Shown one piece after another: positions 42,701-45,700 of a stretch of 64,000 nt of DNA (its first letter is position 1; every line of letters starts with the position of its first letter). The position numbers are program-made. The stretch is from Vulcanimicrobiota bacterium (GTDB taxonomy: Bacteria > Vulcanimicrobiota > Vulcanimicrobiia > Vulcanimicrobiales > Vulcanimicrobiaceae): contig OY970223.1 in NCBI GenBank assembly GCA_963714015.1, positions 512,001 through 576,000 of the forward strand, given 5' to 3'.

Positions 42701-45700
42701 ATGACTGATTGGAGCCGGTGCGCCATTGCGGAGAACGACTTCACGCCTTCGCGCAGCGCATGCGGTTCCACTCCCACGGCCAGCGCCGCAAGCAGTGCCG
42801 CCATAACGTTCTGCACGTTATGGCTTCCGGCCAGCGGAATCTCGCCGGTTCGAACGATCTCGATCGCCCGCGGGTCTCCGCTGAACGGCGTGAAGATCAC
42901 CGAGTCGCCACTCAGGTACATGGCTGCGCGCTCGTGGCGGGCGCCCAGCGTGAACCATAGTTGGCGCGCGTGCATGCGAGGCTCTCCCGAATGCCAGTCG
43001 AGCTGCGCAACGCGCTCGTCGTCGAGGTTGCCGACGAAAAAGTCTTGCTCGCTTTGGTTGGCAAAGATGCGGTATTTCGCTTCGGCATACTCGTCCATCG
43101 AGTAATAGCGGTCCAGGTGATCCGCAGAAATGTTCAGGATGACCGAGACGCGCGGCCGGAACGAGCGGATCGCTTCGAGTTGAAACGAGGAGACCTCGGC
43201 AACGACCCAGTCGCAGGGATGCGCTGCCGGCACTTCGCGTATCAGCGGATTTCCGATGTTCCCGCCGACGTGCACGGATCGCCCCGCCGCTTGCAGCAGA
43301 TGACCGATCAGCGAGGTCGTGGTCGATTTTCCCTTTGTTCCGGTCACTGCGACGATCGGCGCGCTGCAAAGCCGGTACGCCACTTCGATCTCGCTGAAAA
43401 CCGGAACGCCCGCATCCTGTACCGCGCGCACGAGCGCGCCGTTCAGCGGTACGCCCGGTGAAAGCACCGCCACGGTAAATCGGCCCAGCAGTGGAGCAAG
43501 TTCGGCCGGCGCTATGAACCGGGCACCGGTGCTCTCTATTGCCGATATGGCATCGCGCAGCTCCGCGGGCGCTTTCTCGTCTACCGCATACACCGCCGCG
43601 CCGCGGGCCCGCAGCACTTCCGCCGTAGCTTGGCCGCTGCGTCCGATGCCGATGACCAATATCGTGTCGCCGCCGCCGAAATTCTTCATATTGCGATCGC
43701 CATTCCGATGGCGGATAGAACGATCGAAGCGAGCCAAAATCGGCCCGTGACTTTGGTTTCGGGCCAGCCTTCCAACTCGAAATGGTGGTGGAGCGGACTC
43801 ATGCGCAAGATGCGCTTTCCGCCGGTGCGCTTGAAATAAACAACCTGGACGATCACCGAGAGCGCTTCGATGACGAAGACGCCGCCGACTACGATCAGCA
43901 AGAGCATCTCACCGGTGAGTATAGCCAGTGAAGCGAGCAAAGCTCCCAGCGCCAGCGAACCGGTGTCGCCCATGAACATTTTAGCCGGATAGCGATTGTA
44001 GAGCAGCAGGAATGCCGCCGTTGCTCCAATCTCCAGCAGCGCCACTTGCGGCACGGCCGGAACGTAGAACCAGAATCCCAGCGCAGCAAAAACCGCCAGC
44101 GGCGGTATGACGGTGCCGGTGGCAAGTCCATCGAGGCCGTCAGTGAGATTCACGGCGTGAATCGTACCGGTGATCGCCAAGATTCCGAGCAACAGCCAAG
44201 CCCAGTGGGGAACCGCGAGCACGAAACTGCCGGCATGCAGAACGACGTCGCGCGGAAAAGTTCCGTAAGAAGACGAGATTGCGGTCAAAAAAATCACTGC
44301 CACGAGCGCCGTGAGTAAGTATTTGCTGCGCGCGCGCAATCCCCGGTTTTTACCGCGCAAAATTCCCAGTGCGTCGTCGGCCGCGCCGATTGCGGCGCAG
44401 GCAGCGACGAGAAAGAAGATCGTGCCGTCGAACGGTGCGTCGAGCGAGGCGAGCAACACGAAAAGCGGCGTCACGAAACAGAGCCCGCCCATCGTCGGAG
44501 TTCCCGTTTTACGCTGGTGCGTTTGCGGCGCGTCCTCGTAAGCATGTTGGCGCAGCCGGCGCCGCCGCAGCAGGGGCAGCAGAAGCGCGCCCGTCAAGGC
44601 GGCAATTGCGAATCCGGCGGCAACCCAGAGGCCGGCGAGCGTCCAAGTCACTCCGCGGCCTCTTCGAGCAGCGGATTTAAGCCGGTGCCGCGCCATTTCA
44701 GGACGACAATCGGCGTCTGCTCGTCGCCGTTGCCGTGCGGATTCGAAAGAAGCGCAAGCTCGACGTTACGACGGTTCACCCCCGCGCTGGCGCCCAGAAC
44801 CTTCGCTTTCTCTAAATCATTGGCATCGACGACCGCGCAGCCGATGCCGGTGCGATCCAAGACCGACTGCGCCAAGGCGTCCGGATTCTGCGGCGCAAAA
44901 ACGATCATGCGTTCGAACGGCGGCAGCGTTCCGGTATATCCGTCGATCGCCGCAATCGCCTCGCCCAAAATTTCGTAGAACATTCCTCGCCGCCCCGCGA
45001 ACCGTCCAAGCACTTGCATCAGCGCGGCATAGAGTACTCTGCCGGGGCCGGCCTGATCGATAACGATCTGCAGCGACTCGGGCTGACTCACCGTCGCAAG
45101 CGGGCCCGCACGGCGCGAAAGATAGTAGGCGATGCGCGAAGGACGCACGTATTCTGCGCGAACGGCTTGGCCTTGGGCGATCGCCACCGCCGTTTCGGAA
45201 ATGGCGAGCACGTCGCCGGGGCGCGCGATACCGCTTGCGCTGCGCTCGACGAGCGTAATGAGGTCGTCGCCGGCTTGCACCAGCGGCGTGCGCACCGGAA
45301 TGGCAACCACTCCGCTCGGAAGCTCCGTCCGCGAGATTTGCAGGCGTTTCATGCCGGCTCCGCCGCCCCAGGCACGCGCAAAGCGGCGACGATTTCTTCC
45401 ATCTTATATTTTCGGGAGCCCTTGAACAGGACGGCATCGCGCGGGCCCGTATGCTCGCGCAGCCAGCTCGCGGCTTCCTCGTTCGTCTCGAACCGCACGA
45501 TGCGATCCGCCGGCATCCCGGCGGCGACCGCGCCCGCGGCAATTGACGAGGCGTATTCACCCCCGACGAGGAGTGCGTCTACGCCGACTGCCGCTGCATG
45601 CGCACCCACGCGTTCGTGCAAAGCGGTCGAAAGCGGCCCCAGTTCCGCCATACTTGCGAGCACCGCGATGCGATGCTCGGCCGCTTCGGCAGAAAACGCA

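Follow-up and report, generated by a model that had tools for sequence, protein, structure and literature searches.

The window analysed here is a 64,000-nucleotide stretch of a Vulcanimicrobiota genome (assembly GCA_963714015.1, contig OY970223.1, positions 512,001 to 576,000). The organism is a soil bacterium of the class Vulcanimicrobiia, also called Eremiobacteria. Coordinates of the features discussed are given in Table 1. The window contains a dcw cluster in which an additional open reading frame lies between murF and mraY, as the survey's finding had stated; both the reading frame and the identity of its flanking genes were confirmed.

Table 1. Features of the dcw cluster in the window (position 1 is the first nucleotide of the window).
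Feature	Position	Strand	Evidence
CofE-fold gene (234 aa)	44648..45352	-	Open reading frame; Pfam F420_ligase; AF2 model; VIA match to 2phn_A
murF (461 aa), upstream of the CofE-fold gene	45349..46734	-	Mur_ligase_M, Mur_ligase_C and N-terminal domains; junction sequence
mraY (321 aa from GTG 44651), downstream	43686..44651	-	Glycos_transf_4, 100.6 bits; MraY signature; junction sequence
ATGA overlap, murF stop / CofE-fold gene start	45349..45352	-	Junction sequence
GTGA overlap, CofE-fold gene stop / proposed mraY start	44648..44651	-	Junction sequence
murE, same operon	46731..48197	-	Mur ligase domains; DNPR motif in translation
murD, same operon	42295..43737	-	Domain match
Whole dcw cluster: mraZ, rsmH, ftsL-like, ftsI, murE, murF, CofE-fold gene, mraY, murD, ftsW, DUF2332, murG, murC, murB, ddl	35695..51754	-	

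The junction of murF with the CofE-fold gene reads GCATGAAA. The TGA of murF and the ATG of the following gene have 4 nt in common, and a GGAG lies 8 nt 5' of this ATG. At the other end, the start of mraY is ambiguous because two codons are possible, GTG 44651 (a GTGA overlap of 4 nt) and ATG 44696 (an overlap of 49 nt). The 4-nt overlaps originally described for both ends of the gene therefore hold on the murF side, and on the mraY side if translation begins at the GTG. Promoter-like sites were not found within positions 43000-47500, and terminator-like sites occur at chance level (6 observed vs 5.4 expected).

The 234-aa protein has the CofE fold over its full length. It passes the gathering threshold of the Pfam F420_ligase model (PF01996; 50.3 bits vs 25), matching model positions 2-112 of 218 only, and scores 47.3 bits in a six-frame scan of the genome; the survey had reported the same span at 46.8 bits. 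A sequence search of the PDB returned CofE over residues 18-90 (E 4e-4), identical to the earlier values. The survey had also found only CofE chains to be similar in structure, using an AF2 model of poor quality (pLDDT 58). The fold assignment stands but the low confidence does not, as our AF2 model has a pLDDT of 94.2 and a pTM of 0.90. Foldseek matches this model to CofE chains only (E 3.8e-10, TM 0.62), with the next match at E 0.56. VIA aligns 185 residues with PDB 2PHN (model 14-231, chain 2-226; Z 15.3, rmsd 3.0) and gives Z 3.4 for the second-best match. Profile comparison by hhalign with 12 true CofE sequences gives a probability of 98.8% over 200 columns. Mur_ligase, Mur_ligase_M and Mur_ligase_C domains are all absent from the protein, and a protein atlas search returned nothing beyond the family's own clusters. 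The gene belongs to a distinct, widespread subfamily that has no curated model of its own.

The Pfam match, and the name 'coenzyme F420-0:L-glutamate ligase' that sources give to relatives, invite the reading that the protein is genuinely a gamma-glutamyl ligase serving F420 or some other cofactor, for example a folate-type relative of CofE. We regard this as extremely improbable. Scores fall far below the cut-offs of the CofE equivalog models TIGR01916 (34 vs 180.65 bits) and NF009809 (33.6 vs 274), and of TIGR04132, a putative folate-metabolism gamma-glutamate ligase (13.3 vs 350); an ordinary FolC is already encoded in the genome (349.7 bits). The host genome, a single contig of 3.56 Mb that is 89.6% complete by markers, yielded no CofC and no CofG match above the cut-off. 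Its sole CofD-family match is YvcK (TIGR01826, 360.6 bits), and its CofH look-alikes are MqnC and MqnE-like, which bears out the reported absence of the other F420 genes. True CofE occurs in none of the 231 genomes searched of the class (families f1-f3), where the CofE-fold family is near-ubiquitous. It occurs in 39 of 301 genomes of the phylum, in other classes, and the CofE-fold family was present alongside it in all four such genomes checked.

Comparison of the sequences at the CofE site points the same way. In a profile alignment with 12 true CofE sequences, the CofE-invariant positions K39, S42, K43, N104, D108, S110, N111, R154, W156, R157, N162, D175 and R177 (numbered along the aligned CofE segment) are lost, and E45 of CofE is replaced by Q. 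Some of these positions would bind GTP or Mn in CofE. A strand-end motif reads VDAND where CofE has ITDTN or ISDSF, retaining one acidic residue. The C-terminal helix of CofE has no counterpart, and the AF2 model places helices at 91-118 where the alignment puts CofE strands. Taken with the missing pathway, the sub-threshold scores and the coexistence of true CofE in other classes, these replacements leave the survey's proposal that the protein is not an F420 enzyme well supported. Since most CofE-invariant polar residues are replaced, nucleotide-dependent ligase chemistry cannot be read from the sequence.

All 30 best-scoring loci of the class, among them the window's own and that of an unpublished genome (G247), have the gene order murE-murF-x-mraY-murD, as do another 13 of 13 genomes. 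The arrangement, said earlier to be kept in most genomes of the order, is therefore present in 43/43 loci examined. The CofE-fold family occurs in 295 of 301 genomes of the phylum and in 232 of the 234 high-quality ones. All 119 homologues besides the query among the matches listed are 77-84% identical to it, which reproduces the survey's figure. The earlier count of 127 invariant residues out of 234 in 21 sequences was not reproduced; in 27 more diverse sequences we find 89/234, compared with 109/461 for MurF in the same genomes. The accompanying claim of unusual conservation is upheld: across 28 genomes, mean identity to the window proteins is 73.9% for the CofE-fold protein, 66.5% for MraY and 58.6% for MurF, with the CofE-fold protein ranking first in 26 of the 28.

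Fusions also tie the gene to murF. The two genomes examined of the sister family f3 each have murF and the CofE-fold gene in a single continuous reading frame, of 781 and 799 aa. Among 74 long homologues drawn from protein clusters, 25 combine Mur ligase domains with F420_ligase in one protein, 21 of these being 700-771 aa long, and the contigs that carry some of them reach 2.37 Mb. Long open frames of 705-860 aa in family f1 were considered as fusions and rejected, as murF and the gene are in different frames there; among f1 and f3 genomes, true murF fusions occur in f3 only. In other classes of the phylum the gene is beside murF or mraY in none of nine loci and adjoins Ddl in one of them.

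Outside the phylum, the family is widespread in Cyanobacteria, Clostridia and Thermoleophilia, where it lies away from the dcw cluster. A search for related loci using a 7-sequence alignment as query gave 80 loci outside the class, and in none was the gene within 7 kb of murF or mraY. Cell-wall connections of other kinds are present. One Bacillota clade has Amidase_3 beside the gene or fused to it in 15/15 loci, and these Amidase_3 proteins show no recognisable signal peptide. A scan of 90 long representatives gave six with an Amidase_3 fusion and eleven with a TPR fusion. One representative is fused to a polysaccharide deacetylase. AsnB-like fusions account for 13 of the 74 long homologues, and MurJ is encoded 1-3 kb away in all four Actinomycetota loci. 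Conserved neighbours in the 38 loci from cyanobacteria are not cell-wall genes but a GNAT-like gene and ruvX (32/38); of three proteins tried for the GNAT-like neighbour, one had a GNAT match, a weak one. Pfam had no match to the N-terminal domains. That of the 404-aa form is a generic beta-sandwich whose best match, the TMEM106B luminal domain, has a Z of 8.7; this lies in the range of common folds, so no function can be deduced. For the window's own genome, tblastn at E 1e-3 was negative for the N-terminal anchor domain, for PvlArgDC and for a fifth Mur ligase.

These contexts bear on whether the gene has an unrelated housekeeping function and is a mere passenger in the dcw operon. DUF2332 is likewise inserted in the same cluster, and the gene has other genomic contexts outside the class, as a passenger might. 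However, DUF2332 is present in only 3/13 genomes, against a position fixed in all 43 loci examined for the CofE-fold gene, and neither the in-frame MurF fusions nor the independently arisen links to Amidase_3, MurJ and AsnB in other phyla would be expected of a passenger. We judge this explanation very unlikely.

The Amidase_3 association suggests a second alternative, muropeptide salvage or editing. The protein would be a counterpart of Mpl that works with a cytoplasmic MurNAc-L-Ala amidase and puts stem peptides back on the lactyl carboxylate of UDP-MurNAc, or swaps them there. In favour of this, the window's genome has four Mur ligases only and, by tblastn, no Mpl-like fifth. Salvage genes are mostly dispensable and patchily distributed, whereas the CofE-fold gene is near-universal in its phylum and more conserved than murF; its position and fusions, moreover, indicate MurF rather than MurC. 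A salvage role thus appears distinctly doubtful, even though CofE itself takes a lactyl carboxylate as its acyl substrate (PMC10861534).

Homologues also occur in plants. Among the best 120 of 2418 matches, the named eukaryotic species belong to Closterium, Mesotaenium, Klebsormidium, Chlorokybus, Mesostigma, mosses, liverworts, a lycophyte, ferns and a conifer; there are no angiosperms among these 120, and Physcomitrium is absent from them. These lineages are documented to keep plastid peptidoglycan synthesis (PMC9434261, PMC10784329), and PMC10784329 also reports that a few angiosperms carry the full peptidoglycan toolkit. Within the best 120 of 2418, named eukaryotic homologues are therefore confined to plant lineages that keep plastid peptidoglycan. 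Plants with a walled chloroplast appear to have inherited the gene. The soluble precursor of a moss, analysed by mass spectrometry, is the ordinary UDP-MurNAc-DAP-pentapeptide (PMC9434261), which speaks against the bulk of the nucleotide precursor being modified in that clade.

Together, the MurF fusions, the Amidase_3, MurJ and AsnB-like links and the plant homologues give a role in peptidoglycan precursor synthesis support that is independent of the operon. Such a role is likely, and the gene probably belongs to a part of cell-wall synthesis that has yet to be described. The survey had proposed, more specifically, a ligase acting on a peptidoglycan precursor between the MurF and MraY steps. 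The precursor-synthesis part of this proposal is strengthened; for catalysis, the ligase chemistry, its substrate and the exact step we rely on inference. No locus examined beyond the class has the gene adjoining murF or mraY, and the CofE site residues are mostly lost.

The subfamily has its own invariant polar residues, T22, E53, Q60, D137, D176, N178, D179, N204 and T213, which fall in the same four loops as the CofE-invariant residues. This pattern can be set against a third alternative, in which a non-catalytic, regulatory protein would bind the UDP-MurNAc-peptide, or MurF or MraY, and hand over or gauge precursor. The extensive replacement of CofE catalytic residues and the variety of fusion partners (TPR, amidase, MurF) would suit a protein of this kind. 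So would the precedent of the genome's YvcK, a CofD-family protein that binds UDP-GlcNAc and whose role is taken from its NCBIfam name, in which an F420-pathway fold can serve the control of cell-wall precursors. On the other hand, more than a third of the residues are invariant, and the near-invariant polar set in the CofE-pocket loops, here counting D47 together with Q60, D137, D176, N178, D179, N204 and T213, resembles an active site and not a binding surface. A precursor-binding protein is accordingly rather unlikely, while carrying some weight.

The reading we prefer, tentatively and as somewhat less than probable, is that a cytoplasmic CofE-superfamily protein has been re-tooled for peptidoglycan precursor metabolism as an amide-forming ligase at or just after the MurF step. 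The subfamily keeps the CofE fold and pocket position and has its own set of polar residues. Within the class, the product is made together with MurF and MraY, by translational coupling or, in one family, by MurF fusion. As in CofE, a carboxylate would be activated by a nucleoside triphosphate before the amide bond is formed. The acceptor would be a carboxyl of the muramyl-peptide precursor, in the form of UDP-MurNAc-pentapeptide or of the lipid-linked compound that follows it.

A broader version is speculative and, in our estimate, improbable, if by no means negligible. It holds that in an ancient, undescribed step, at the MurF, MraY or lipid-intermediate stage, a CofE-derived enzyme joins an amine, either an amino acid or a polyamine, to a carboxylate of the stem peptide. 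Vulcanimicrobiota, cyanobacteria, many Clostridia and Thermoleophilia would have this step in common with those plastids of streptophyte algae, bryophytes, ferns and conifers that bear peptidoglycan. In 20/80 loci the CofE-fold gene has a pyruvoyl arginine decarboxylase gene nearby, which, like the GNAT-like neighbours, hints at a polyamine as the amine. In Negativicutes a polyamine on the D-Glu alpha-carboxylate is known, and the available part of PMC10628300 leaves the gene of the responsible enzyme unnamed. The accessible portion of a paper on a cultured Vulcanimicrobiota member mentions 'thin peptidoglycan' only, with no chemistry. Our literature search returned nothing on this gene, be it on CofE with murF or mraY, on PF01996 or F420_ligase, on the dcw cluster of Eremiobacter or WPS-2, or on F420 in cyanobacterial or plastid peptidoglycan, and a paper on Mur chimeras (PMC10214165) contains no F420 or CofE term.

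To our knowledge, the cytoplasmic steps of peptidoglycan synthesis are held to be completely known. A gene that is better conserved than murF and lies within the core operon throughout a bacterial class points to a missing player, whether enzyme or regulator. The F420-ligase label applied by public pipelines wrongly suggests that Vulcanimicrobiota and cyanobacteria use F420. Cultured Vulcanimicrobium, tractable cyanobacteria and Marchantia all seem to carry a member of the family, which makes its role directly testable.

The closest known system is CofE, which adds L-glutamate to F420-0 in a GTP- and Mn-dependent reaction. The two proteins are alike in whole-length fold (26% identity in the structural alignment), in a glycine/proline framework with D30, D47 and G61-R62, and in the placement of the pocket loops. 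They differ in the equivalog scores, the replaced polar residues, the missing C-terminal helix, the two helices modelled in place of CofE strands, and genomic partners that are cell-wall genes in a genome devoid of the F420 pathway. The CofE dimer has a domain-swapped beta-hairpin over the F420 site (PMC10861534). TIGR04132 is likewise a CofE-family branch outside F420 producers, but the CofE-fold protein scores far under its cut-off and accompanies an ordinary FolC. YvcK/GlmR, present in the same genome, is similar in that an F420-pathway fold serves cell-wall precursor metabolism without F420; its fold and family are different and the parallel is one of analogy only. The Mur ligases, Mpl, MurT/GatD and AsnB/LtsA form amide bonds on muramyl-peptide carboxylates, MurT/GatD and AsnB/LtsA as modifiers of stem-peptide carboxyls. 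This is the chemistry proposed for the CofE-fold protein, and AsnB-like enzymes are among its fusion partners, yet none of these enzymes shares sequence or fold kinship with it.

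The CofE-fold gene of the window lies within a complete division and cell-wall (dcw) cluster, the features of which are listed in the table below. At the upstream junction, GCATGAAA, the TGA of murF is overlapped by the ATG of the CofE-fold gene, and a GGAG is found 8 nt upstream of this ATG. At the other end, the TGA of the CofE-fold gene overlaps a GTG at 44651 by 4 nt, from which mraY would encode 321 aa. The mraY start is ambiguous: the alternative ATG implies a 49-nt overlap with the CofE-fold gene. No promoter-like sites were found in 43000-47500, and terminator-like sites are at chance level (6 found, 5.4 expected). 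The survey's finding of a gene inside murF-x-mraY (x denoting the CofE-fold gene) is therefore real. The DUF2332 gene of the cluster, for which the NCBIfam models gave no match, is inserted between ftsW and murG and overlaps the end of ftsW; elsewhere in the class it occupies the same place in only 3/13 genomes (G144, G136 and G202). A few kb beyond ddl, the opposite strand carries a further pair of genes.

Features of the dcw cluster and its surroundings (window positions)
Feature	Position	Strand	Content
Complete dcw cluster	35695-51754	-	mraZ, rsmH, ftsL-like ORF, ftsI, murE, murF, CofE-fold gene, mraY, murD, ftsW, DUF2332, murG, murC, murB, ddl
CofE-fold gene	44648-45352	-	ORF, 234 aa
mraY	43686-44696	-	336 aa from the alternative ATG 44696
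DUF2332 gene	40077-41198	-	281 bits
Pair past ddl	29513-32087	+	alanine racemase gene; gene with copper amine oxidase N-terminal domain

The murF-x-mraY order that the survey described as conserved holds throughout the loci compared within the class. The arrangement murE-murF-x-mraY-murD is present in 30/30 best-scoring loci, which include the window's own locus and L037 (from G247, an unpublished genome), and in 13/13 further genomes with longer flanks (9, 2 and 2 from families f1, f2 and f3). Over 28 genomes, mean identity to the window proteins is 73.9% for the CofE-fold protein, 58.6% for MurF and 66.5% for MraY; in 26 of these genomes the CofE-fold protein shows the highest identity. In matched 27-row alignments, 89/234 of its residues are invariant, compared with 109/461 for MurF. 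One of the main rivals to a role in precursor synthesis is that the gene is a passenger in the dcw operon.

The CofE-fold gene is either co-translated with murF or fused to it. A single open frame (781 or 799 aa) spans murF and the CofE-fold gene in both f3 genomes, with a linker of approximately 45 residues. Mur ligase domains accompany F420_ligase in 25/74 long homologues from a 5.8-billion-protein collection, 21 of them 700-771 aa in length; long contigs encode several (2.37 Mb, 216 kb and 82 kb), and MurF of 'Candidatus Eremiobacteraceae' is the name given to some. Five protein clusters of the same collection fuse a CofE-like domain to MraY and could be frameshift artefacts, because the CofE-fold gene and mraY overlap out of frame. 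The long open frames of f1 genomes are not fusions, as murF and the CofE-fold gene are in different frames there.

By sequence, the window protein ranks as only a weak relative of CofE. Pfam F420_ligase matches it at 50.3 bits (model positions 2-112 of 218), the NCBIfam CofE equivalogs score 34 and 33.6 bits without reaching their cut-offs of 180.65 and 274, and the folate-type relative TIGR04132 scores 13.3 bits against a cut-off of 350. A sequence search of the PDB finds CofE at E 4e-4 over residues 18-90. The predicted structure extends the CofE fold across the whole length of the protein. An AlphaFold2 model built from an alignment of 50 stand-alone relatives (pLDDT 94.2, pTM 0.90) matches only CofE chains in Foldseek (E 3.8e-10, TM 0.62; next match E 0.56), and VIA-align superposes model residues 14-231 on residues 2-226 of a 2PHN chain (Z 15.3, rmsd 3.0 Å, 185 residues aligned; next entry Z 3.4). 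Profile-profile comparison with 12 true CofE sequences from other classes of the phylum gives a probability of 98.8% over 200 columns.

In this profile alignment, the residues common to the family and CofE are mostly glycines and prolines, together with D30, D47 and G61-R62. The CofE-invariant polar residues K39, S42, K43, N104, D108, S110, N111, R154, W156, R157, N162, D175 and R177 are not retained in the family, which also has no counterpart of a C-terminal CofE helix, and E45 is replaced by Q (K39 to R177 and E45 are numbered as in the aligned CofE segment). The family has its own near-invariant residues (T22, E53, Q60, F125, Y126, D137, D176, N178, D179, N204, P205, G207, T213 and P214), which fall in the same four loops as the CofE invariants, and its VDAND motif is aligned to ITDTN or ISDSF of CofE. 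The position of the CofE pocket is thus kept while the pocket itself is re-tooled. Loss of the CofE polar residues counts against a ligase, and a main rival reading is that the protein is a non-catalytic adaptor that binds the precursor.

The family is independent of F420. The window's genome, a single 3.56 Mb contig that is 89.6% complete by markers, has one PF01996 match, the CofE-fold gene itself. No CofC was found in it, and CofG stays below the cut-off (51.6 bits at best, with 213 required). The pair of CofH-like genes comprises MqnC (457 bits, cut-off 428) and an MqnE-like gene, and the sole CofD-family gene is YvcK (360.6 against 196 bits). YvcK is a UDP-GlcNAc-binding protein of the CofD family; the 285-aa match to it (contig C1, 2706264-2707118) lies within a far longer open frame of 654 aa. 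The genome also encodes an ordinary FolC (349.7 bits). Across the phylum, true CofE exceeds the cut-off in 39/301 genomes and the CofE-fold family is found in 295/301 (both tallies include ten genomes flagged unpublished) and in 232/234 high-quality ones, mostly as a single match per genome. True CofE is found in 0/231 genomes of the window's class (f1 0/206, f2 0/3, f3 0/22). Four genomes (G003, G040, G050 and G054) carry both genes at separate places. A true cofactor ligase, for F420 or otherwise, is practically excluded, and the survey's view that this is not an F420 enzyme is well supported by the scores, the replaced polar residues, the missing F420 pathway and the true CofE that accompanies the family in other classes. 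At NCBI, 5 of 120 close relatives listed are called 'coenzyme F420-0:L-glutamate ligase [Candidatus Baltobacteraceae]'; that family is now Vulcanimicrobiaceae, phylum Vulcanimicrobiota (Eremiobacterota).

Among 1.84 billion representatives, 715 relatives were found at E ≤ 1e-3, and the 90 longer ones were scanned against Pfam. Fused domains comprise TPR repeats (11), Amidase_3 (6), AsnB-like amidotransferase (4), MraY (4) and single cases of MurF, polysaccharide deacetylase, M20 peptidase, GNAT, adenylate kinase and an HD domain; AsnB-type fusions also account for 13/74 long homologues in the 5.8-billion-protein collection. The representative proteins P0364, P0357/P0253 and P0244 carry rare fusions to GGDEF/EAL, HD_4 (RelA/SpoT-type) and adenylate kinase, all partners that handle nucleotides and might be relevant to a substrate of that type. 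Most of the remaining longer relatives are approximately 400 aa, with an N-terminal part lacking a Pfam match. The model of one, P0137 from a sister class (pLDDT 91.4), has a transmembrane helix (2-25), a generic beta-sandwich (30-168) and a CofE-like domain (193-394). Because positive charges follow the helix in several such sequences and the fusion partners are cytoplasmic, this form is suggestive of a membrane-anchored cytoplasmic domain.

A one-genome-per-species scan gave at least 588 confirmed family matches among 600 stretches, of which 80 loci were kept. None of the 80 has murF, mraY, murE, murD or ftsW within 7 kb. The 400-aa form, examined in nine genomes from the phylum's other classes, is likewise not close to murF or mraY (0/9); one of these loci has Ddl and a NAGPA-family gene as neighbours, and one more has NAGPA. 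This absence of dcw linkage outside the class also counts against the ligase reading. Clades from a quick FastTree (local support only, with true CofE as an outgroup on a long branch) agree with protein architecture, and the dcw-embedded form is a separate clade (10 rows, support 90). The family is recurrently associated with enzymes acting on the muramyl peptide. In a Bacillota-type clade, an Amidase_3 gene without visible signal peptide is fused or adjacent in 15/15 loci, often with a second, membrane-anchored CwlD-like amidase; a salvage ligase paired with a cytoplasmic amidase is another of the main rivals. Four Actinomycetota loci with TPR fusions have MurJ 1-3 kb downstream in 4/4. In 38 cyanobacterial loci the fused anchor form is followed by a GNAT-like gene and then, in 32 of them, by ruvX. 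The conserved GNAT-like neighbour encodes 357-395 aa (e.g., L128:7667-8740 and L153:7687-8874); of three such proteins scanned, one matched GNAT weakly, and the representative P0208 fuses a CofE-like domain to GNAT. Clostridia encode the anchor domain in a gene of its own upstream. In L092:6393-7016 and L097:6471-7028 anchor and beta-sandwich form a gene overlapping the CofE-like gene start, so that the 400-aa protein, fused in cyanobacteria and other Vulcanimicrobiota classes, is split here. A pyruvoyl-dependent arginine decarboxylase gene adjoins the family in 20/80 loci in three arrangements, 16 in Clostridia, where it is divergent (e.g., L092:5843-6301 and L097:5867-6328), and 4 in the Bacillota-type clade (L089, L082, L086 and L088), a possible link to polyamines. 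Some records may be mistitled or misbinned: L105, titled 'Bacillota bacterium', yields a protein segment identical to that of L063, whose contig is equally long (66920) and whose genome is placed in the window's phylum, and L080 (titled Bacteroidota) and L086 (Ignavibacteriales) group inside the Bacillota amidase clade, with L094 flagged alongside.

One family representative is from the alga Closterium. Among the best 120 of 2418 matches to this query, the named eukaryotes are streptophyte algae (Closterium species, Mesotaenium, Klebsormidium, Chlorokybus and Mesostigma), mosses (Ceratodon and Sphagnum), liverworts (Calypogeia, two species of Riccia, and Marchantia), the lycophyte Diphasiastrum, the ferns Ceratopteris and Adiantum, and the conifer Cryptomeria, with no angiosperms; cyanobacteria come next at 50-53% identity. 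Plastid peptidoglycan synthesis is documented for these plant lineages (PMC9434261, PMC10784329 and, for a gymnosperm, PMC12681378), and PMC10784329 describes the full peptidoglycan set as absent from most angiosperms and present in a few. Within those best 120 matches, the plant distribution argues on phyletic grounds, independently of bacterial gene order, for a role in peptidoglycan. The moss soluble precursor, described as unmodified in PMC9434261, counts against a ligase.

The survey had proposed a ligase acting on a peptidoglycan precursor between the MurF and MraY steps. MurF fusion, co-translation and cell-wall partners favor a role in peptidoglycan precursor synthesis; the ligase chemistry, the substrate and the place between the two steps are inferred. 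By analogy with CofE, the protein would be an enzyme that uses a nucleotide to activate a carboxylate and then forms an amide, the proposed acceptor being a carboxyl group on UDP-MurNAc-pentapeptide or on a lipid intermediate; the acyl group of CofE itself is a lactyl or glutamyl carboxylate (PMC10861534). For a cultured member of the Vulcanimicrobiaceae, PMC9758169 describes no more than a diderm envelope with a thin peptidoglycan layer, and we found no paper on the CofE-fold gene. What is new is that the MurF fusion is real, that the family extends into other phyla, where it has cell-wall partners of its own, and that it shows this pattern in plants. Within the CofE superfamily, we rate the family as a functional branch that is new.
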